A stretch of DNA of 64,000 nt from Thermoflexia bacterium (GTDB lineage: Bacteria; Chloroflexota; Anaerolineae; B4-G1). A program made the position numbers and the translations under genes. Positions 239-53,476 of the stretch are shown here, piece by piece (positions within the stretch are counted from its first letter, which is position 1; each line of letters begins with the position of its first letter). The stretch spans positions 1-64,000 of the forward strand of contig DUEK01000004.1 in assembly GCA_011192155.1 (NCBI GenBank). The letters run 5' to 3'. Under the pieces are notes generated by a model. That model saw only the letters and a program-made list of their open reading frames with translations, made no database searches and was not told the DNA's origin.

Positions 239-1759
239 CTATTCCAGATTGCGCGCCACGGCCTGGTGCAGCACGATGTAAAACGTCTGGACGTCGGGAT
301 CGCGCGGATCGTGCACGTCATCGAACAGAATTGTGACCAGTACCCAGCGCTCCCGTTCGAGGGCCAGGTCGGCCCACATGCGGGTGCCGTAATCGTCGGT
401 GGTGCGCCCCGCCGACTGGAACCAGTAGGCAGCCGAGGCCAGGCTGTGGCCCTCCCCGTCGCTCAGGGAAAGAAAGCGCACGGGAAAATCGGGAGCGACC
501 AGGTAGGTGCGCGAGTCGTCGAGCGATAGTCCGTAGACCTCGAAGCAGCGCTCCGGCCAGTGCTGGGCGCGCCAGGTGTTGCTGGTGATGAGGATCATTG
601 AGCCTGTGATATCGCGCCACTCAAAGCGCAGCCTGGTGGCCGAATTGGCGCCGCCCCGGGTCAGCCATTCGATCTCGTCGGGTCGGAGCGGCATTGGCTC
701 GGTGACCAGCCCGGCCGGGAACTCCCACGTCGGCGCGGCCTGCGCCAGCCCGGTCTGCGGGCGGGGGGTGTAGACGAGCGCCATCGCCAGTATGACCGCC
801 GCCAGAGCGGGTGCCAGCCACGCCGGGCGGGTAAGGTCGGGTTGGCAATCCGACCCACGCGCGACCGGTTGCAGCCGCAGGAGCACGACCACGGCCGCGC
901 AGGCCACGACGAAGCCGAGCACGCCGAGCGGAACGTGGATCATCTCGGCGACCGTCTCCCAGCCCGCCACCTGCCCGACGACGACCAGCACGCCGACGCG
1001 GGCCACGTTGGCGGCGAGCAGCAGCGCGGCGAAGGCCAGCGCGGTCAGGAGCCAGCGCAGGTTGAGCCGCCGCCGCTCGATCCAGGTCGCGGCGATGAGG
1101 AACAGCGCGCCGGTCCACAGGCTCTTGACCCCGCTGCACGGCACGTCCACCTGCGAGACGCCGTTTTCCAGCACCAGGATGGTGTCCACGCCGACGGACG
1201 CGACGCCGGCCCCCGCCAGCCCGTCGCGCACGAGGGCGGCGGTCAGGATGCGGACGGGGTAGCCGACGAAGGTTTGCAAGTGCTCGCCGAAGGGGAGCGC
1301 GCCGATGAGCAGCAGCAGCGCGGCCGGCAGCCCCTCGCGCCAGCGAGCCGGCTCCATCCACAGCCCCAGCAGCCCGTAGCTGGCTAACCCGAACAGGCTG
1401 GCCGAGATGGTGTTGATGTCGAGAAAGCGTTCGACGAGCAGGTAGAGCGCCGAGCCGCCGAGGACAAGGGTCAGCGCCGGGACGGATAGCTGCGGCGACG
1501 CGTCGAGCCGCGGATGCACGCGCCCTGGGAGCACACGCCCCCCTCGCGCAAGCGAGGTGCGCACGCGGACGGCAATCAGCACGGCCACGCCGACAAGCAC
1601 GATCTGGTTGGTGCGAAAGTCCTCGCGCGAAAAGATGATCGAGAGGTAGCCGAACATACCTCGGTAGAGCCACAGCCACAGGCCAACCACGCCCACGTTG
1701 GCGGCGATGCGGGCGACGCGATTGGCTGTTGTGTGTGTCAGTGTATTGTCAGTTGACAT
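239..1759 (-). CDS. exosortase/archaeosortase-family transmembrane protein fused to an EpsI-like C-terminal domain
   Basis: 506 aa, multi-TM N-terminal half with conserved Cys motif (VDVPCSGVKSLW) typical of exosortases. About 180-aa soluble C-terminal domain as in XrtA-EpsI fusions. Confidence 0.6.
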   Translation of the reverse strand: MSTDNTLTHTTANRVARIAANVGVVGLWLWLYRGMFGYLSIIFSREDFRTNQIVLVGVAVLIAVRVRTSLARGGRVLPGRVHPRLDASPQLSVPALTLVLGGSALYLLVERFLDINTISASLFGLASYGLLGLWMEPARWREGLPAALLLLIGALPFGEHLQTFVGYPVRILTAALVRDGLAGAGVASVGVDTILVLENGVSQVDVPCSGVKSLWTGALFLIAATWIERRRLNLRWLLTALAFAALLLAANVARVGVLVVVGQVAGWETVAEMIHVPLGVLGFVVACAAVVVLLRLQPVARGSDCQPDLTRPAWLAPALAAVILAMALVYTPRPQTGLAQAAPTWEFPAGLVTEPMPLRPDEIEWLTRGGANSATRLRFEWRDITGSMILITSNTWRAQHWPERCFEVYGLSLDDSRTYLVAPDFPVRFLSLSDGEGHSLASAAYWFQSAGRTTDDYGTRMWADLALERERWVLVTILFDDVHDPRDPDVQTFYIVLHQAVARNLE

Positions 1760-1786: not shown

Positions 1787-2260
1787 TCAGTCCGGCGGCG
1801 TAGGGGTGATGACCATCACCTCGACCGCCACCCAGCCGTCGTTGTCGCTCAGGATATCGTCGTCAATGCGCAGGTAGAGGGGGCCGGATTCGTTCGCCCG
1901 CCAGCGGACGCGTTGCCCCACGTAAAACGGTTCTCCGTCCTCGCCGATGCGCCCGATCAGCGCGCCACCGGGCACGTTGGGCAAGGGGTAGAAGGCAGGC
2001 GAACTGTAGCGCCGGTGTCCCTCCGGCCCGTGGTACTCGCCCGGCGTGTACAGCCACGTACCCTGGGCCAGGATGCGCACCTCGTCCCCTTCGCGCACGC
2101 GCACCCCTACGCTCTGCCAGCTCCGGTAGGCAAAGATGCGGGGATTGGTGAGCGATTCCTGATACACGGGGAGCACTGTCGCCTGTGCCGCCAGCGCGAC
2201 CAGCCCAATGGTCGCGATCAGGGTCAGGGCTACCAACATGAGTGATTTTTTCATGGTCAT
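1787..2260 (-). CDS. secreted hypothetical protein
   Basis: 157 aa, N-terminal signal peptide (MKKSLMLVALTLIATIGLVALAAQA). RBS GGAGAGG upstream. Confidence 0.5.
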   Translation of the reverse strand: MTMKKSLMLVALTLIATIGLVALAAQATVLPVYQESLTNPRIFAYRSWQSVGVRVREGDEVRILAQGTWLYTPGEYHGPEGHRRYSSPAFYPLPNVPGGALIGRIGEDGEPFYVGQRVRWRANESGPLYLRIDDDILSDNDGWVAVEVMVITPTPPD

Positions 2261-2293: not shown

Positions 2294-3217
2294 TCACTCG
2301 CCGGACGATGGGCTTGCCGGCAGCTCTGCGGGGGGCGCATCTTCGCCGCGCAGGTCTACGATGGGGGTGCCGTCGCCACTGATGACCCATTTGCTGTTCT
2401 CCTTCAACTCCTGGGCGATCAGGTATTGGAGGTACATCTCGGCCAGGTCGCCCTGGCCCTCTAGTTCCGAGAGAATGGCGCGCACCGCCAATTGCTGGGC
2501 CGCGGCGATCTCGGTGATCTGATACGCCTCCGCGTCCGCCTGCCGCTGGGCGACGTAGAACTCGGCATCGGCCAGCGTCTTTTGCTGGGCCGCCTCGGCC
2601 TGGGCCTGCTCCTGGCGCTGCACGGCCACCATGCGGTCCTTAATAGCCGTCATCACCTCGTCCGGCGGCGAGGCGCTCTGCATCTGCACAGTGATGAACT
2701 GGACGCCGTACTGCTCCTCTTTCTCCCGCAGCGCCTCCACCACCTCCTGATTCATGGCGGCCCGACTGTGCATCACGACCGTCATCGCCTTGGTGTTGAC
2801 CACGTCCCGCAGCTTGCCCTGCACGAACTCGAAGACAATACGCTCCGGGTCGTCCACCTCCAGGGCATATCGTTGGGGATCGGTCACGCGGTAGGTGTAT
2901 TGGAGCGAGACGTCCATGGTCACGTCGTCGGAGGTCATGGCCGCCAGTTGTTCGACGTAGCCCAGCCGCTCGTTGACTTTGACGATGATGACAGTGTCCG
3001 CCAGCGGAATCTGCACGTGCCAACCCGGTCCTTCCACAGCGACGAACCGACCGCCGCGCAGGTGCAGCCCACGCTCATATTCGTGGATCTTGTAGATCGC
3101 GGCCCGGCCCAAAAAGATCACGGCGGCCAACAGGATGAAGGCGGCCAGTATGACGACGGCCACTTTGTAGAATCGTTCCAGGGTATTGCGTGAAGGGGAT
3201 GCTACAGTCTCGGTCAT
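2294..3217 (-). CDS. SPFH/band-7 (prohibitin/HflC-like) membrane protein
   Basis: Band-7 core (HVQIPLADTVIIVKVNE...TVVMHSRAAMNQEVVEAL) followed by a long coiled-coil-like tail. Start set at the internal ATG (MTETVASP...) with RBS GGAGGTAGAACA. The ORF-track extension to 3340 is low-complexity. Confidence 0.8.
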   Translation of the reverse strand: MTETVASPSRNTLERFYKVAVVILAAFILLAAVIFLGRAAIYKIHEYERGLHLRGGRFVAVEGPGWHVQIPLADTVIIVKVNERLGYVEQLAAMTSDDVTMDVSLQYTYRVTDPQRYALEVDDPERIVFEFVQGKLRDVVNTKAMTVVMHSRAAMNQEVVEALREKEEQYGVQFITVQMQSASPPDEVMTAIKDRMVAVQRQEQAQAEAAQQKTLADAEFYVAQRQADAEAYQITEIAAAQQLAVRAILSELEGQGDLAEMYLQYLIAQELKENSKWVISGDGTPIVDLRGEDAPPAELPASPSSGE

Positions 3218-3517
3218 TGTTCTACCTCCGAAGGATTGAAGATTGGGTGATGGTGATTTGGAGATGGATGATTTAAGATCTACAGATTTGAGATTTGGAA
3301 AGCTGCGCGAAACATCGTGATAAGAGAGGAAAACTCTCACAGGTTGGCGCCCAAAACCCCGGTAGGCTGTTTTTTGTAGGGTGAAGAACGCCGCAGGGGT
3401 TTTGGCCCTTTTTCAAGTTGTTTCTTAGCAGTAATTTGTGCTTTTGCGCCGTCTCCAGTAAATCCGTCAATCTTAAATCAACAGTGACTGCCCAGACCAT
3501 AGTTACACAGAGATACA

Positions 3518-3690: not shown

Positions 3691-3720
3691 ACAAAAAGAG
3701 CCCGGCGCTCGGCGCCAGGC
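3691..3720 (-). terminator. rho-independent terminator after the response-regulator gene
   Basis: Minus-strand GC-rich stem GCCTGGCGCC-GAG-CGCCGGGC followed by TCTTTTTGTTTG, 30 nt after the stop at 3750. Confidence 0.4.
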
Positions 3721-3749: not shown

Positions 3750-4379
3750 TCAAGGGGCGATGCCGTGCTCCGTGGCCCACATCGCCGCCTCCACCCGCGA
3801 GGCCGCTCCCAACTTGTGCAGAATATTGCTGACGTGAAATTGCGCTGTTCGCTCCACCACCTGCAGCTTGAAGGCGATTTCCTTATTGCTCAACCCTTCT
3901 GCTACCAGCCGCAGCACCTCTAGCTCCCGTTTCGTCAGACCGCCCGGTTGTTCTCCTCGCGCCCAGGCCGTCACCGTGGCCGTCACCGTTGGGCTAAAGT
4001 ATCCCTTGCCTCGCGCCGCAGCCCGCACCGCGGCCACGATCACGCTCGGCGCTTCGTCCTTCAGCAGGTAGCCCACGGCGCCCGCTTTCAGCATCCCGCG
4101 CACGTACCGTTCATCGTCGTAGGAGCTGAGGGCCAGTACGCACGCCGGCAAGTTCCGCCGCCGAATCTCGCGCGCCACATCCACGCCCTCCACCTCCGGC
4201 AGTTCGCAATCCAGCACGACCACGTCGGGCTGTGCTGTCTCAATCAACGCCAGCGCTTCCGCGCCGTTCTCTGCCTCGCCCACCAGTTCCACGTCGGGCG
4301 CGCGCTCCAAGAGCACCCGCAACCCCAAGCGTAGGGCGGGGTGATCGTCGACCAGCAGCACACGGATGGTCTCGCTCAC
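3750..4379 (-). CDS. response regulator, NarL/FixJ family (REC + LuxR-type HTH)
   Basis: N-terminal receiver (LLVDDHPALR...D...VVVLDCELP), C-terminal LuxR HTH (LTKRELEVLRLVAEGLSNKEIA). GTG start overlaps the upstream stop (GTGA). Confidence 0.85.
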   Translation of the reverse strand: MSETIRVLLVDDHPALRLGLRVLLERAPDVELVGEAENGAEALALIETAQPDVVVLDCELPEVEGVDVAREIRRRNLPACVLALSSYDDERYVRGMLKAGAVGYLLKDEAPSVIVAAVRAAARGKGYFSPTVTATVTAWARGEQPGGLTKRELEVLRLVAEGLSNKEIAFKLQVVERTAQFHVSNILHKLGAASRVEAAMWATEHGIAP

Positions 4380-5842
4380 GGTTTCCCTTTCAACAGCAAG
4401 TCGAATTCCTCCGCCGCGTCCAGCAACCGGCCCGGCTGTCGCGTGAGGCTAAAGTATTCCCACTGCGTGTCGTGCGGGAAATAGTCCAGGAACCAGCACA
4501 ATGCCTTGATCTGTGGCTCCTCGTTGATCACCCCCAGCGCGGCCGTCAGCCAGCCGCGAGGGTAGTTCTGCGCCGGAGGGACACTTTCGTCGGGGGCAAA
4601 GGTGTTGGCGACGGTGAGGTATACCGGCAGCCCGCGCGTCGTGGAATAGGCATTGACAATGTCCAGCCACTCCCGGTAGACGCGGAACCCGGCCTGGGCG
4701 CCGTTCCACTCCCCCCGCTTCAGATCCAGCCGCGGCTCCTCGTCCGCGTCCCGTCCGGCCAGTTCCGGCGCGGCGGGGCGGCCCGCAGCCTGGACGGCAA
4801 AGCCATCGGGCGCGGTCAGCGGAATGCCAGTGGCCGCTTTCGCCCGCGCCCCTTCGTCCAGCGCAGCTACCAGTGTGTTCGCATAGTTGAGCCAGGGCGC
4901 ATCTATCTCGTAGCGCTGCTCCCCATCCTGGTCGGTGGTCCACGGCTGTACCGGGCCAACGAGCACGCGCACGTGGGGGTTATCCGCCCGCATCACCTGC
5001 ACTGCGTTATCGGCGTGGGCGATCTCTTCGCCGTAGCCGTTGAAGACGCGCGCGTACCATTCCGGCGTCACCGGGTGGGCCGGGGCCAGAGAGTTGCTGT
5101 CCAGCGAGTTGTAGCTGCTGCCGAGGAAATAGCCGTACACGTCTCGCAGGCGCTCGTCCCGGGCCAGCCGTTGCAGGTATTGGAGATACTGGGACAAGGC
5201 TAGATAATCGCCCGCCGGGGGCAAGCTCTGGCCATAGTCGTAATCCACCCGCACCAACACACGCAGCCCTTTTCCCGCAGCTTGATGGACGCGCGCGGCC
5301 AGGTCGTCTATGCCCCAGTGCTCCTCCTCGGCCATCAGCGCGTAGGTCAGTTCCACGTTCCATCCGCTGCGGCCGTGCCAGTCTCGCTCCGGGTTGGCAA
5401 AGACGAGCCCCAGTTTGGTGGGCAGCGGGTTGGTCTGAGCAGCGGGCGGCCCCGTTCCTATCGTCATGCGCCCCCGTTCTATGCAGCCGGTGTGGCAATC
5501 GCGGTAAAAGACGAGCGTGCATCCCCCATCCTCTGGGACGACGAATTTCCACTCCCACACCAGGGCGTCGTCGGGGCCGGTGGGCCATCTCTTGGCCTGG
5601 GCCGGCTGCCCATCCACCGTGAGCAGGACGTAGCTCCACGGAACGCCGTCCGTTACCCGCAGGGTGGCCTCCTGACCGGGGGCGGGGGCGGGCGGCGATA
5701 GCCGCATCTGGGGCCAAAGCAGGCCGATCGGGTCGCCGCCGGGTATGATCACCACTTGCCCAGAGATGGGCAGCAGCCAGTAGCCGCCCAACAGGACCAG
5801 GAGCGGTAGTATCCACCACCACTTCCGCAACCAAGTGTTCAC
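4376..5842 (-). CDS. membrane-anchored extracytoplasmic protein with a glycoside-hydrolase-like (TIM-barrel-like) domain; putative accessory component of the two-component system
   Basis: 488 aa. N-terminal TM helix (WWWILPLLVLLGGYWLL), Pro-rich linker, about 120-aa beta-rich region, then about 330 aa with hydrolase-like pattern (LRVLVRVDYDYGQS..., NPHVRVLVGP...). GTG start with RBS GGAGGAGG overlapping the kinase stop (GTGA). Own stop overlaps the regulator GTG start. Confidence 0.5.
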   Translation of the reverse strand: MNTWLRKWWWILPLLVLLGGYWLLPISGQVVIIPGGDPIGLLWPQMRLSPPAPAPGQEATLRVTDGVPWSYVLLTVDGQPAQAKRWPTGPDDALVWEWKFVVPEDGGCTLVFYRDCHTGCIERGRMTIGTGPPAAQTNPLPTKLGLVFANPERDWHGRSGWNVELTYALMAEEEHWGIDDLAARVHQAAGKGLRVLVRVDYDYGQSLPPAGDYLALSQYLQYLQRLARDERLRDVYGYFLGSSYNSLDSNSLAPAHPVTPEWYARVFNGYGEEIAHADNAVQVMRADNPHVRVLVGPVQPWTTDQDGEQRYEIDAPWLNYANTLVAALDEGARAKAATGIPLTAPDGFAVQAAGRPAAPELAGRDADEEPRLDLKRGEWNGAQAGFRVYREWLDIVNAYSTTRGLPVYLTVANTFAPDESVPPAQNYPRGWLTAALGVINEEPQIKALCWFLDYFPHDTQWEYFSLTRQPGRLLDAAEEFDLLLKGKP

Positions 5843-6972
5843 GCCCTCACCTCCTCCGGCAAAATCGACAGGACAAAGCGCACGCGCGTACCCGTCTCCT
5901 CACCCACGGTGCGGCTTTGCAGTTCCAGGCGGCTCTGGTGACGGCGCAGGATTTCCTCCACCAGCGTCAGTCCCAAGCCGCTGCCCTCTATCTTGCGGGG
6001 GACGGCGCGGTAAAAGCGGCGAGTGACGTGCGGTAGGTGCTCGGCCGGGATGCCGGGGCCGGTGTCACGCACGATGCACTCAACCCCCTCCTCCACCCGC
6101 CCCAGCGAGACGATCACCCGGTCGCCAGGTCTGGAGTATTTGATGCCGTTATCCAGGAGGTTGAGAAAAACTTGCAAGAGACGGCCTTCCTGCCCCACGA
6201 CGAGAGGCAGAAGGGTTTGAGCATGCAAAGAGAGGTCAATCTCTCGCCCCTCCGCCTGGGGCGCGCTCTGAGCAATGGCCTGCTCCACTAGGGCCAGGAG
6301 GTCCACAGGCCGCCGCTCAATCTCGACACTGGTTTCCAGGCGGCCCAGCTCAAGCATCTGGTTGATCAGCCGGGCCATGCGCCTGGTCTCTGTCTGCAAC
6401 AGATGGAGCGACTGTTGGCGAATCTCCTCAGAGACGTCAGGTAGGAGCAGAATTTCCAGATGGGTCAGGATGGTGCCGATGGGGGTGCGCAGTTCGTGGG
6501 AGAGCGCGCTGAACAGGTAGCTGGCGGCCTGCTCAGCCCGGTGCTGGGCAGTGGCCTCCATCACCACGACGATGTCCATCTCGTTCCAGGGAGTGACCCA
6601 CCAGCGGACGACCCGGTCTGAGGGAAGCGAGACGCGGCGGTAGCGCCCCATCGCCCCCATCTCCTGCCGCGCCGCTCCCCGGTCTTCTTCCAGGAGCGGA
6701 ACCCAGGCCGCTTCGGGGAGCAGGCCATCGGGTGAGGTCAGCCCCAGCAGGCGGCGAGCGTAGGGGTTGGCGTAGCGATAGGAGCGCGGGCCATCCAGCA
6801 TCAGCCAGCCAAAGGAGGCGCGTTCCAGCACGGTATGCACGCCCTCCGGGGTGAGGGGCGAGGCCCGGCGCTCTCTACGCCGCCATCGCGCCAGCCGGAC
6901 GGTCAACGAGACGATGGAGATCGTCGCCAGCAGGAGAACAAAGATCACCCAACGCAGGTCGAGGAAGAGCAT
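5839..6972 (-). CDS. sensor histidine kinase (HisKA + HATPase_c), single N-terminal TM helix
   Basis: H-box LSHELRTPIGTIL, N/G1/G2 boxes (NLLDNGIKYS, RDTGPGIP, GSGLGLTLV). TATAAT 11-16 nt upstream of the ATG. Confidence 0.85.
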   Translation of the reverse strand: MLFLDLRWVIFVLLLATISIVSLTVRLARWRRRERRASPLTPEGVHTVLERASFGWLMLDGPRSYRYANPYARRLLGLTSPDGLLPEAAWVPLLEEDRGAARQEMGAMGRYRRVSLPSDRVVRWWVTPWNEMDIVVVMEATAQHRAEQAASYLFSALSHELRTPIGTILTHLEILLLPDVSEEIRQQSLHLLQTETRRMARLINQMLELGRLETSVEIERRPVDLLALVEQAIAQSAPQAEGREIDLSLHAQTLLPLVVGQEGRLLQVFLNLLDNGIKYSRPGDRVIVSLGRVEEGVECIVRDTGPGIPAEHLPHVTRRFYRAVPRKIEGSGLGLTLVEEILRRHQSRLELQSRTVGEETGTRVRFVLSILPEEVRA

Positions 6973-7020
6973 AGTGGGCTAATTATACGGGAGAAGTGGG
7001 CAAGTAGGCAAGTTCGCGTA

Positions 7021-7037
7021 TTGGTTGCAATTTGCAA
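7021..7037. promoter_or_regulatory. palindromic operator candidate (GGTTGCAA-T-TTGCAACC) overlapping the -35 region of the vapBC promoter
   Basis: Perfect 8-1-8 inverted repeat 14 nt upstream of TATAAT (7051..7056). RBS AGGAGGTGG, then vapB ATG at 7073. Confidence 0.35.
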
Positions 7038-7072
7038 CCAGAAATGGTATAATCAGGATAGGAGGTGGACAT

Positions 7073-7315
7073 ATGTCTATTTTGCACGTGCGGAATGTTC
7101 CCGAGCCACTGTATGCACGCTTGAAACAACGGGCAAAGACACAGCGCCGCTCGTTGAGCGCAGAAGTCGTCACCTTGCTGGAATGGGCCGTCGAGGAAGT
7201 AGAGCGTGCGTCGCAAGTTTCCCTGGCGACAATTCGTCGCCGTCGCTTTTTCGAGCCTGCCGCTGTCAACGCGCCTGATAGTACAACACTGCTGCGCGAG
7301 GACCGCGAGCGATGA
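7073..7315 (+). CDS. vapB: VapB-type antitoxin (ribbon-helix-helix/Arc-like)
   Basis: 80-aa protein (MSILHVRNVPEPLYARLKQRAKTQRRSLSAEVVTLLE...). Strong RBS. Stop overlaps the vapC ATG (ATGA). Confidence 0.7.
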   Translation: MSILHVRNVPEPLYARLKQRAKTQRRSLSAEVVTLLEWAVEEVERASQVSLATIRRRRFFEPAAVNAPDSTTLLREDRER

Positions 7316-7767
7316 TAGCGGAACGAGGGGAAAACTTTGATTGTGTGGTTGATGCCAGCGTAGGAATCAAGCTCTTTCTAGTCGAGCCACTTTCGAATCG
7401 AGCTGATGTGCTGTTCGACCGCTTGACCGACGACCCACCGAGCCGGTTCTATGTGCCGGACTTGTTCTTTATTGAATGTACCAACATCCTGTGGAAATAC
7501 GTACGGCGCTTCAATTATCCTGCGGACGCGGCGCGGCAGGATGTCGCAGACCTCACCCAGTTGCCATTGAGGGCCGTTTCCAGCGCGGCGCTGGTGGACA
7601 AAGCTCTGGCCCTGGCTATACAGCACGGCAGTACCGCTTACGATTCAGTGTACGTTGCTCTGGCAGAACGATTATCGGCGCCCCTGGTGACGGCCGATGA
7701 AGCGTTGGTGCGTCGTTTTACCGGTACCAACCTGGATGTGCATTTCCTGGGCGATTGGCCCTGGTGA
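7312..7767 (+). CDS. vapC: PIN-domain ribonuclease toxin VapC
   Basis: 151 aa with PIN acidic residues (VVDASVGIKLF...D...E...D). 4-bp overlap with antitoxin. Confidence 0.8.
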   Translation: MIAERGENFDCVVDASVGIKLFLVEPLSNRADVLFDRLTDDPPSRFYVPDLFFIECTNILWKYVRRFNYPADAARQDVADLTQLPLRAVSSAALVDKALALAIQHGSTAYDSVYVALAERLSAPLVTADEALVRRFTGTNLDVHFLGDWPW

Positions 7768-16892: not shown

Positions 16893-17261
16893 TCACACTT
16901 TGACTGTCTCAGCCAGGTTGGCCGGGCGACGGATCGCTGCCAGCAACTCTTCCGTCGGACATCCTTTCAACAAATAGCCATCAGCCCCGATTTCCAGGGC
17001 TGCGTCCAGGTAGCGGTCGAACACCGCAAGCAGGATGACGCGCGTCTGAGGCCGGCGGGCTTTGATCTGTCGCGCGGATTCCAAACCCATCTTTTCGGGG
17101 GCGATCAAAACTACGTCGGGGAGCGCCAAAGCCACCAGGTCTATTGCTTCGGGACCGTTGCCTGTGGTCAACACGCTGTCGCAGTAATCGCTCAGGACCA
17201 TTTGCAGTCCATCGCGGAACACTTTGTCGTCGTCCACGATGAGAACCTGGCGTGCAATCAT
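16893..17261 (-). CDS. stand-alone receiver-domain protein (CheY-like)
   Basis: VLIVDDDKVFRDG...D...K receiver motifs, no output domain. Start MIARQ with RBS GAGGGAGGG. Confidence 0.75.
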   Translation of the reverse strand: MIARQVLIVDDDKVFRDGLQMVLSDYCDSVLTTGNGPEAIDLVALALPDVVLIAPEKMGLESARQIKARRPQTRVILLAVFDRYLDAALEIGADGYLLKGCPTEELLAAIRRPANLAETVKV

Positions 17262-17405
17262 TTCCCTCCCTCGCCGGACAATCACAACAGCACAGGCAAA
17301 TGATAGCAAAAATCAGGCGGTCTGTCATCGTTCTTACACGCTGACCTGGCAAGAAAAAAGACCGATCTTTCGACCGGTCTTTGTGGTACTTTTGGGCAAG
17401 GGTTT

Positions 17406-18086
17406 CTAATCGTCTTCCGAAAGCAATCCCAACTGGATTGCCTTGGCCACCGCCTCGGCGCGGGTGTTGGCATCCAGCTTTTGCATGGCATTGGCGATGT
17501 GGGTCTTGACCGTGCGCTCCGAGATGAACAGCGACTCGGCAACGTCGCGGGTGCGCGCTCCGCCAGCCAGCAGGAACAGTGCCTCTCGCTCGCGGGCGGT
17601 GAGGTGTGTGCCGGGCGCGGGTTCGGGGGGCGGGGACTCGCTGGCCGTCATCATCTCGCCCAGTTTGTCCAGCACGCGGGCGGCCACCACCGGCTGCAAC
17701 AACGACTCTCCGCGCGCCACCAGGCGAATGGCCCGCACCAGTTCGTCGGGCGAGGCGTCCTTGAGCAAGTAGCCGCGCGCGCCAGCGCGAATGCCGGCCA
17801 TGATGTACTCTTCGTCGGCGTAGGTGGTCAGCACCAGGACGTGGGTATCCGACAGTTCGGCGCGGATGCGCTCGGTGGCCGCGACGCCGTCCACGTTAGG
17901 CATCTTGAGGTCCATTAGCACCACGTCGGGGCGCAGTTGGCGGGCCTGGCGCAGCGCCTCGGCGCCATCCCACGCTTGTCCGACGACGGTGATGTCATCC
18001 TCCACGTCCACGATGGCGCTCAGGCCCTCGCGTACTACGGGGTGATCGTCGGCTACCAGCACACGGATGGGATTCTTTGTGGTCAT
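17406..18086 (-). CDS. response regulator, NarL family
   Basis: REC (VLVADDHPVVREG) + LuxR HTH (LTAREREALFLLAGGARTRDVAESLFISERTVKTH). Confidence 0.85.
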   Translation of the reverse strand: MTTKNPIRVLVADDHPVVREGLSAIVDVEDDITVVGQAWDGAEALRQARQLRPDVVLMDLKMPNVDGVAATERIRAELSDTHVLVLTTYADEEYIMAGIRAGARGYLLKDASPDELVRAIRLVARGESLLQPVVAARVLDKLGEMMTASESPPPEPAPGTHLTAREREALFLLAGGARTRDVAESLFISERTVKTHIANAMQKLDANTRAEAVAKAIQLGLLSEDD

Positions 18087-51646: not shown

Positions 51647-53476
51647 TTATGCGGCGACCGGTATCGTGAATGTGAAAGTTGTCCCTTCTCCAAGCTGGCT
51701 TTTCACCTTCATCTCGCCGCCCTGAAGCTCCACCAGGCTCTTGGTTATGCACAGCCCCAGCCCCGTGCCGGGCATATCGCGCACTGCGGGATTTTCTGAT
51801 CGGAAGAACTTTGTGAATAGTTTTTCCAAATCCTCCGGCGACATGCCAACGCCCGTATCAGAGACGGTACAACTGACATAGCCATTCTGCTGCCGGGCGT
51901 GTACCTTGATGCTGCCCCCCTCAGGGGTGTATTTGTAGGCGTTGCTGAGCAGGTTGATCAAGATTTGCGTCAGCCGCGCCTGGTCAGCGTGGATCAGCGG
52001 CAAGTCCTCCGACATCTCCACCATCAACTGCTGTGATCGAGCCTCGACCTGCCCTTGCGTAGATTGCAAAGCCTCCGTCAGTGCGTCTTTCAGAGCCGTC
52101 GGCTGCATTTCGAGTTTCAGATGCCCGGTCTCAATGCGAGAGACGTCCTGCAGATCTGAAACCTGGATTTGCATACGCTTCACGTTGCTGCTGATGGTTT
52201 GGATAAACTGTTCTTGTTGGGGGGACAATTCGCCAAACATTCCCTTCAATAGCATCTCGGCATAGCCCCGGATGGATGTCATCGGCGTGCGCAGTTCGTG
52301 GGCGACGAACGAGACAAACTCTGTTTTGGCCTGGTTGGCCTGTTGAACTTGATCGTACAACTGGGCGTTCTCGATCGCCATAGCAGCGTGACCCGCTAAC
52401 TGGCCAGCAAATTGAACACGAGACAACTGGAATGCAGCGCCTTTATCCCTTCGCAGGTCCAACAGCCCCACTGTCCGATCCTCGTAACGAATGGGAACCA
52501 GCATCCGTGTGGCCTCGATCAAAATAGGCTCTTGGCTGCTCATAACTCGCTTGACTATATCCGGCTTTGGTTCCGCCAGATTTTTGTCGCCAGCGCGGGA
52601 AACCGTGCTCACGTTGCCGTTTTCGTCCAGGATGCACAATGTCCCCACGTCCGCCCGCGTGGCCTGCATTGCCCAGGAAAGCGCCAGGTCTAGCACCCGT
52701 CCAAGATCCAGGCTGGTGGCGTTCAGTTCCTGATCAATATGTTGCAATGTTGTCAGTTCCTCTACTCGCGCGCTCAAGGCCTGATCGGTCATCGTGTACA
52801 AACGGGCGTTCTCGATGGCGATGGCGGCTTGGCTGGCGAACGCCGTCAGCAAAGGTAAATCAGACTCGGAGAAAACATTCTCTCGAATTCGGTTATCCAG
52901 GTAAAGAGCGCCGATCACCCAGTCCCGGATGTGCAATGGCACGCAGGCAATTGACCGCAGATTGTAACCGACGACACTCTCTTGCCCTGAGAAGCGAGGG
53001 TCACGTTGAGCATTGGTGGTCAGCACCGGTTCCCCTCCATCCACCGCCTCACGCACCACTGTCTGACTGACTTCCAAGTCGGAAGCGTCAACACTCTCCT
53101 GATCAAAGTTCTGAGCTGCCCGGATATCTAGATGGCCTTTTTCGTCCAAGAGCATCAGGCAGCCCCGTTCGGCGCCTGTGAGGTGGATGAGTGAGTCCAT
53201 CACCAACCCCAATGTCTCTGTCAGGTCAAGCGACGAGTTCAAAACTGTGATGATTTCGTAGAGGGTCGCCACCTCCGCTCCCTCCGCCGATCCTCCGGCT
53301 AGGTCCATCACCATCTGTTGCCATTCCTGGAGACGGGCGATCAATTGCTCGTGCGGAATCCCGTGAGGTTGCCTCAGCGCGTTTTGTACTACACGCATGC
53401 TCTCCAGAAGTGTTGCAGTTGTGCCTCCTCCCACTGTGATTGTAGCTTTATTCATTGTGGCTTTTGTCTCCTTCAT
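51647..53476 (-). CDS. orphan sensor histidine kinase with tandem GAF domains (cytoplasmic)
   Basis: H-box AHELRTPMTSIRGY, HATPase N/G boxes. Two GAF domains. No TM. No adjacent regulator. Confidence 0.8.
   Translation of the reverse strand: MKETKATMNKATITVGGGTTATLLESMRVVQNALRQPHGIPHEQLIARLQEWQQMVMDLAGGSAEGAEVATLYEIITVLNSSLDLTETLGLVMDSLIHLTGAERGCLMLLDEKGHLDIRAAQNFDQESVDASDLEVSQTVVREAVDGGEPVLTTNAQRDPRFSGQESVVGYNLRSIACVPLHIRDWVIGALYLDNRIRENVFSESDLPLLTAFASQAAIAIENARLYTMTDQALSARVEELTTLQHIDQELNATSLDLGRVLDLALSWAMQATRADVGTLCILDENGNVSTVSRAGDKNLAEPKPDIVKRVMSSQEPILIEATRMLVPIRYEDRTVGLLDLRRDKGAAFQLSRVQFAGQLAGHAAMAIENAQLYDQVQQANQAKTEFVSFVAHELRTPMTSIRGYAEMLLKGMFGELSPQQEQFIQTISSNVKRMQIQVSDLQDVSRIETGHLKLEMQPTALKDALTEALQSTQGQVEARSQQLMVEMSEDLPLIHADQARLTQILINLLSNAYKYTPEGGSIKVHARQQNGYVSCTVSDTGVGMSPEDLEKLFTKFFRSENPAVRDMPGTGLGLCITKSLVELQGGEMKVKSQLGEGTTFTFTIPVAA

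Follow-up and report, generated by a model that had tools for sequence, protein, structure and literature searches.

A conserved histidine kinase, pseudo-glycosidase and NarL-type regulator trio in Chloroflexota: a candidate three-component system

Few families of accessory proteins that feed histidine kinases are known, they are increasingly being recognised, and to our knowledge none of them is a pseudo-glycosidase. In Actinobacteria, the phylum-wide MtrA-MtrB-LpqB trio includes LpqB, a lipoprotein. In Enterobacteriaceae, the extracytoplasmic accessory protein QseG directly binds and activates the kinase QseE (PMC12691602; PMC6075780), and in Bacillota the YycH and YycI proteins control WalK most probably via transmembrane (TM) helix contacts in a ternary complex (PMC7355866, citing Szurmant 2008). 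Glycoside hydrolase (GH) modules can also act as sensors, as the GH10 and GH5 modules of RsgI in Clostridium thermocellum are cell-surface polysaccharide sensors that control transcription (PMC6852018). The present analysis concerns three genes on the minus strand of a 64,000-nt stretch of a metagenome-assembled Thermoflexia bacterium genome (Chloroflexota; contig DUEK01000004.1, positions 1 to 64,000; hereafter the window), which encode a histidine kinase, a 488-amino-acid (aa) extracytoplasmic protein (the middle protein) and a NarL-type response regulator. The trio is best read as a three-component system of a known kind that is built on an undescribed pseudo-glycosidase family, in which the middle protein would serve the kinase as a non-catalytic co-sensor.

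The kinase operon and its conservation

The kinase, the middle gene and the regulator form one tricistronic operon on the minus strand. A promoter upstream and a terminator downstream of the three genes make this a clean tricistronic operon, and the genes are joined by two GTGA overlaps, as had been described in an earlier note on this DNA:

6982..7011, minus strand: sigma-70-like promoter, TTGCCT-18 nt-TATAAT (10 of 12 matches; three such sites found against 0.6 expected)
5839..6972, minus strand: histidine kinase of 377 aa with a PhoR-like architecture and without an extracytoplasmic sensor domain (HisKA and HATPase_c matches)
5839..5842, minus strand: GTGA overlap of the kinase stop and the middle-gene start, read in the sequence
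4376..5842, minus strand: middle gene, encoding a 488-aa extracytoplasmic pseudo-glycosidase of a new family (no known-family match)
4376..4379, minus strand: GTGA overlap of the middle-gene stop and the regulator start, read in the sequence
3750..4379, minus strand: response regulator of 209 aa (Response_reg, E 4.7e-26, residues 7-119; GerE, E 3.5e-20, residues 148-202)
3700..3720, minus strand: intrinsic terminator with a 9-bp stem (8 GC pairs) followed by TCTTTTTGTT, 30 nt past the regulator stop

Only about 10 nt separate the end of the -10 element from the ATG of the kinase, so that the leader of the kinase mRNA is very short or absent; there is no Shine-Dalgarno sequence. Similar TTGC...(T/C)GTATAAT elements are found 10-12 nt 5' of the kinase start in two close relatives (L005 and L015), and a GGAGG sequence lies 5' of the middle gene. 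The overlaps had earlier been taken to make the three products co-translated stoichiometric partners, which is more than a GTGA overlap can show. Across related loci, 4-nt overlaps are commoner at the kinase/middle junction (23 of 67) than at the middle/regulator junction (13 of 66), and the kinase and the middle gene are therefore the tighter pair.

The kinase is almost entirely cytoplasmic and is made up of the following elements:

6895..6951, minus strand: TM helix, residues about 8-26 (hydropathy; conservation in 57 orthologues)
6553..6837, minus strand: cytoplasmic PAS-like domain, residues about 46-140 (weak Pfam PAS_8 match, E 0.015)
6331..6519, minus strand: HisKA domain, the dimerization and histidine phosphotransfer (DHp) domain, residues 152-214 (Pfam, E 4.1e-14)
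5866..6192, minus strand: HATPase_c domain, residues 261-369 (Pfam, E 5.6e-23)

Its single hydrophobic segment, located within residues 1-30, is preceded by a 7-residue external stub (MLxLDLR) and followed by the Arg-rich cytoplasmic stretch RLARWRRRERR, so that only about 7 residues face outward; hydropathy and Pfam thus agree with the prior description of a kinase with one TM helix and essentially no external domain. The stub (MLxLDLRW) is conserved among the 57 orthologues, as are the motifs FGWLxLx, YRYANPYARRLLGL, GRYR and VRWWVTP of the PAS-like domain. The motifs of a classical HisKA kinase are all intact (H-box SHELRTP with His159, DNGIKYS, DTGPGI and GSGLGL), and the regulator carries the classical receiver residues Asp11, Asp12, Asp57 and Lys107 together with a C-terminal GerE/LuxR-type helix-turn-helix (residues 148-202), which places it in the NarL/FixJ family. 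Its score against the NarL model NF007935 (177.7 bits, cutoff 250) marks it as a member of this family and not as a NarL equivalog. The pairing of a HisKA kinase with a NarL-type regulator, previously called uncommon, is indeed rarer than that of HisKA_3 with NarL, yet it is not unprecedented, as FixL-FixJ exemplifies.

Conservation of the trio was assessed in a scan of one genome per GTDB species, in which 151 genomes held a relative of the middle protein and 80 loci were taken for neighbourhood analysis. All 80 belong to Chloroflexota (Anaerolineae, Thermoflexales, Caldilineae and Ardenticatenaceae), and neighbours were counted after kinase open reading frames (ORFs) that had been missed were corrected by tblastn. 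The gene order is kept: of 76 informative loci, 72 have an orthologous kinase directly upstream of the middle gene, and 70 of 79 loci have a regulator downstream of it (62 of NarL type and 8 receivers cut by a contig end), so that the accessory gene is conserved within the kinase/regulator operon, as in three-component systems. A reciprocal search anchored on the kinase recovered the middle gene in five of six informative loci, one of the five (L089) being the window's own contig.

The exceptions mostly retain a two-component partner. Four loci (L003, L055, L059 and L072) have the order OmpR-kinase-middle, and their kinases differ in the DHp domain at positions 161, 170, 177, 206 and 214, which are elsewhere at least 80% conserved; these changes would fit a rewiring of the kinase to its new partner. 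Three loci (L025, L052 and L080) have no HisKA kinase or regulator adjoining the middle gene, and at one of them (L080:7613-11291) the gene is followed by a multi-TM GAF-HisKA_3 kinase, with a NarL-type regulator about 3 kb downstream, so that only L025 and L052 are left without a two-component neighbour. A DmsC-like membrane protein is also encoded beside the kinase and regulator of L080. At L027 the kinase lies on the opposite strand, and an apparent kinase-middle fusion at L047 was ruled out, the kinase being in another frame and the long ORF being a high-GC upstream extension.

Fold and lost active site of the middle protein

The middle protein falls outside all known families, in keeping with the earlier failure to assign it. 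Searches of Pfam, NCBIfam, PADLOC, PHROG and PDB sequences returned zero matches, no described GH family was found for it in Pfam, NCBIfam or PDB sequences, and a defence-system assignment was dropped after PADLOC gave no meaningful match. A literature search found no paper describing either the family or a kinase/middle/regulator operon of this kind. An identical sequence is recorded as 'hypothetical protein DRJ03_03150 [Chloroflexi bacterium]', and the middle protein has more than 713 homologous clusters, of which the best 120 are 473-512 aa long, 61-100% identical to it and without a functional name; all named sources among the clusters listed are Chloroflexota. When 1.84 billion cluster representatives were searched exhaustively with HMMER, only 159 were related to it, so that the family is a compact one in terms of sequence.

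An AlphaFold model built on a 35-sequence alignment (predicted local distance difference test, pLDDT, 72.5; predicted template modelling score, pTM, 0.67) shows an N-terminal helix, a seven-strand beta-sandwich and alternating beta/alpha elements over residues 144-485. The beta-rich module and TIM barrel proposed earlier are thereby borne out as a beta-sandwich followed by a (beta/alpha)8 barrel of clan GH-A type. The same conclusion is reached by homology with a sister family of distant, barrel-only relatives of about 345 aa, in which the motifs GNExN, HxY and ExN are invariant and which hhalign aligns to residues 142-486 of the middle protein with a probability of 100% (E 3.9e-60). The features of the protein are as follows:

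5762..5818, minus strand: N-terminal hydrophobic segment, residues about 9-27 (hydropathy; the sole hydrophobic segment)
5459..5710, minus strand: beta-sandwich module, residues about 45-128 (AlphaFold, seven strands, block pLDDT about 67-89)
5483..5497, minus strand: invariant Cys116-x3-Cys120 (DCHTGC) in a hairpin loop of the beta-sandwich (invariant alignment columns)
4385..5419, minus strand: clan GH-A-type (beta/alpha)8 barrel, residues about 142-486 (predicted fold and sister-family homology)
5114..5119, minus strand: Ser242-Ser243 in place of the Asn-Glu (acid/base) after beta4 (alignment, hhalign and family statistics)
4784..4792, minus strand: Gln351-x-Ala353 where the sister family has an invariant His-x-Tyr, at the end of beta6 (alignment and family statistics)
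4610..4612, minus strand: Val411 at the beta7 end, replacing the nucleophile Glu, with Asn413 kept (alignment and hhalign)

The C-x3-C motif is present in about 196 of 201 family members, is flanked by strands 108-114 and 121-128, and probably forms a disulfide.

With the acid/base Glu, the nucleophile Glu and the His/Tyr pair of beta6 all lost, the barrel is unable to act as a classical retaining glycosidase. Of the two roles suggested in the earlier note, carbohydrate binding is thus the better reading and cleavage an unlikely one, the protein having the GH-A fold without the residues of an intact catalytic family. The loss extends through the family: in about 199 members neither Glu nor Asp occurs at the nucleophile position, which holds Ser, Ala, Thr or Val and where the sister family has an invariant Glu, and the beta6 Tyr is gone in every one of about 200. 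Among 180 scored members, about 140 have Gly or Ser at the acid/base position, about 28 have Asp and 3 have Glu, a distribution that would fit a stepwise decay of the active site in which the nucleophile went first. The family may offer a clean natural example of the change from enzyme to receptor, the nucleophile being lost in all members and the acid/base residue in most. At L025 (= L002):3876-5693 the homologue keeps Asn-Asp at the acid/base site, and its upstream neighbour is a 605-aa protein to which a precomputed table assigns GH_cat and GH_C domains, although a Pfam scan of the translated region gave nothing.

Loss of the catalytic residues has been accompanied by strong conservation. 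Asn245, Glu369, Asn413, Trp450 and Asp453 are invariant, column identity over the barrel is a uniform 0.80, and in each of the 50 complete trios the middle protein exceeds the kinase in conservation (62.3% against 55.1% identity to the window). It is thus not drifting and is under stronger purifying selection than the kinase.

The sister family is rare (L105:4569-5606, L084:2000-3049, P0180, P0196, P0197, P0203, P0216 and P0272). It has no match in Pfam, PHROG, PDB sequences (profile search), IMG/VR or 50,697 phage genomes; its alignment is too divergent for a pattern scan, and one of its proteins has a sub-threshold Cellulase (GH5) match (E 0.0024). Reading of the contigs places some members in phage, with siphovirus tail genes on one side and a GH19/transglycosylase lysis region on the other; the L105 gene, for example, has Sipho_Gp37 and Laminin_G_3 upstream and GH19 and transglycosylase genes downstream, and other members sit in cellular gene contexts. 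The usual targets of enzymes from phage tail and lysis regions are glycans on the surface of the host, and the sister family may be a new clan GH-A family of phage depolymerases or lysins. Two uncharacterised families are thus defined, one of dead-barrel proteins of roughly 490 aa, present in at least 151 Chloroflexota genomes at species level, and one of rare, catalytically intact relatives.

A co-sensor model and its alternatives

The reading favoured here, with moderate confidence and in support of the interpretation given in the earlier note, is a three-component system in which the middle protein acts as a non-catalytic co-sensor of the kinase and is probably glycan-binding. The kinase, which has a single TM helix and exposes about 7 residues, cannot sense the outside alone. 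The middle protein would bind an extracytoplasmic ligand, possibly a cell-surface polysaccharide; a glycan is the most likely ligand on grounds of ancestry, as some of the sister enzymes lie in phage tail and lysis regions. In its ligand-bound state it would alter kinase activity by contact at the outer face of the membrane, for which the candidate surfaces are YWLLPISGQV, where the N-terminal part of the middle protein is best conserved, and, on the kinase, the MLxLDLRW stub together with the TM helix. These elements lie at the same outer membrane face, an arrangement that would allow membrane-proximal control analogous to that of YycH/YycI (PMC7355866). The kinase would then phosphorylate the NarL-type regulator (predicted transfer from His159 to Asp57), which in its phosphorylated form would change transcription. 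A role as co-sensor is supported by the link between the middle gene and two-component genes, which survives the swap to an OmpR-type regulator in four loci and to a HisKA_3 kinase in L080. Such a system would provide a model for the sensing of extracellular glycans or envelope state in Chloroflexota, a widespread but little-studied phylum.

A number of observations weigh against this reading. The contact between the middle protein and the kinase and its regulatory effect are inferred, as are the glycan ligand, the direction of regulation and the regulon. The N-terminal segment of the middle protein, which ends in a conserved LLP-I-x-G28 (column identity 0.72-0.76), could serve as a signal anchor or as a cleavable Sec signal peptide, and it fits a Sec cleavage site (Pro at -4, Ile/Val at -3, a variable -2 and the invariant Gly28 at -1); if the protein is cleaved, contact between TM helices is impossible and only the 7-residue kinase stub is left. 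The well-conserved cytoplasmic PAS-like domain of the kinase could be its real input. Co-variation of the kinase and middle-protein N-termini follows clades and, being confounded by phylogeny, is not counted as evidence of contact. Conservation proved not to be concentrated at the active-site face of the barrel (0.76 vs 0.78, no enrichment), and so does not point to a retained binding pocket, and about 30 members retain Asp or Glu at the acid/base position, so that some of the family may keep residual activity or use non-canonical chemistry.

Gene content likewise supplies points of this kind. L025 and L052 carry the middle gene without two-component genes, and a kinase 84% identical to that of the window (L091:3501-4622) has neither a middle gene nor a downstream regulator, being either an orphaned kinase or an artefact of assembly or rearrangement; it is followed by a convergent lipoprotein gene and gyrB. 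No common operator was found upstream of the kinase genes among related loci, because these regions are highly variable, and no conserved regulon was apparent beside the trio, which has no universal neighbour; only a Band_7/SPFH gene, together with a gene for a 157-aa protein, recurs there, in about 16 of 82 loci.

A more specific form of the co-sensor model likens the middle protein to a Klotho/FGFR-type co-receptor, in which the dead GH-A barrel, with its origin in the undescribed glycosidase family also met in phage tail and lysis regions, would be the obligatory ligand-binding partner of the sensor-less kinase; it would read a cell-surface or environmental glycan and signal through contact with the stub and TM helix, possibly with the stub held in the former active-site groove; this proposal is tentative, and its details are more likely wrong than right.

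The middle protein could instead be cargo or output, a co-expressed and perhaps autoregulated structural or glycan-binding envelope protein, with the kinase sensing through its PAS-like domain or TM helix in the manner of PhoR-type or intramembrane-sensing kinases. This account would explain the strongly conserved motifs of the PAS-like domain, the PhoR-like kinase, the signal-peptide-like N-terminus of the middle protein and the separation of the genes at L025, L052 and L091. It is nonetheless judged rather unlikely, since most of about 80 species keep the middle gene between kinase and regulator while no other neighbour is conserved, the linkage outlasts a change of kinase or regulator class, and the kinase/middle junctions are tighter than the middle/regulator junctions. 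Output genes are, moreover, seldom inserted between a kinase and its regulator.

Less can be said for an enzyme with non-canonical chemistry (another nucleophile or base, a substrate-assisted mechanism, or a lyase, transglycosylase or phosphorylase) that acts on an envelope glycan while the kinase monitors its product or activity. The very high and uniform conservation of the barrel is of the kind that enzymes show, five of its residues (listed above) are invariant, a subclade retains Asp/Glu at the acid/base position and a catalytic sister family exists. Against this, the Asn, Glu, His and Tyr of the GH-A constellation and the nucleophile are all replaced in the window protein, which has no acidic substitute at these positions, and the nucleophile is absent from every member, making the idea improbable.

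A PhoR-type phosphate sensor, in which the middle protein would have no glycan-specific signalling role, can be dismissed as highly improbable: PhoR (TIGR02966, 179.5 bits, aligned over kinase residues 54-355) and PnpS are the best NCBIfam matches of the kinase, and like PhoR it has no external domain, but its scores lie far under the curated cutoffs (334.2 for TIGR02966; 141 bits against 390 for the PhoR model NF008235) and rule out that it is PhoR, the WalK, CreC and NblS models score nearly as high so that the likeness is generic, the regulator combines a receiver (REC) with GerE and is not of PhoB type, and neither pst nor phoU is found among the conserved neighbours.

Neighbouring genes and comparison with known systems

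Two genes follow the trio beyond its terminator, and could be members of its regulon or reflect plain synteny among close relatives:

2294-3340, minus strand: Band_7/SPFH membrane protein gene
1787-2260, minus strand: gene for a protein of 157 aa that has no Pfam match and whose N-terminus resembles a signal peptide

Further downstream of the operon, an exosortase of 506 aa (239-1759, minus strand; EpsH family, E 4e-23) carries a long C-terminal extension. Exosortases are associated with exopolysaccharide and biofilm systems, and this one could relate to a surface-glycan signal; its conservation next to the trio was not seen in related loci. On the other side, the divergent intergenic region holds a perfect 8-1-8 palindrome, GGTTGCAAATTGCAACC, at 7023-7039, just upstream of the kinase promoter. 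The palindrome overlaps the -35 of a promoter-like site for a FitA-like ribbon-helix-helix (RHH) antitoxin (7025-7315) and PIN toxin (7312-7767) on the plus strand, is probably the toxin-antitoxin operator and could affect the kinase operon too. Elsewhere in the window, tblastn detected two more receiver-domain genes and a histidine-kinase catalytic region at 16920-18068 and 51656-52345 (both minus strand), none adjacent to a middle-gene homologue.

No homology of the middle protein to QseG, YycH, YycI, LpqB or LiaF was found in Pfam or NCBIfam at E up to 1. Beta-Klotho and its FGF receptor offer an analogy only, being eukaryotic, with a tyrosine kinase, tandem GH1 domains, a C-terminal anchor and a peptide-hormone ligand. 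RsgI likewise uses a surface glycoside-hydrolase-type module as a sensor; there, however, the sensor forms one protein with an anti-sigma factor and works through proteolysis, without a histidine kinase, and its modules belong to recognised GH families. An RsgI-type identity was rejected, as the middle protein has no anti-sigma (RsgI) domain and its neighbours are a kinase and a regulator in place of sigI.

PhoR-type kinases share with the window kinase a TM anchor, a cytoplasmic PAS domain, HisKA and HATPase_c and the lack of an external sensing domain, so that in them the signal arrives through partner proteins; the window kinase differs in its one TM helix, its NarL-type partner, its context without pst or phoU and its sub-cutoff score. 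YycH and YycI resemble the middle protein in that their genes come just after that of the kinase and in that they are mostly extracytoplasmic, with an anchor at the N-terminus. They are not glycosidase-like, and WalK has an extracellular domain and an OmpR-type regulator; its model scores the window kinase at 138.9 bits (cutoff 725). The order of regulator, kinase and extracytoplasmic accessory protein in MtrAB-LpqB recurs in the four OmpR-kinase-middle loci. LpqB is generally regarded as having an unrelated fold, and the MtrB model scores the window kinase at 96.7 bits (cutoff 450).

The closest parallel in layout is QseE-QseG-QseF. No sequence relationship of the trio to this system was detected with Pfam or NCBIfam, and its parts differ, QseG being an outer-membrane lipoprotein of unrelated fold, QseE having a periplasmic docking domain and QseF being of NtrC type, whereas the gene order of kinase, accessory protein and regulator is identical in the two.

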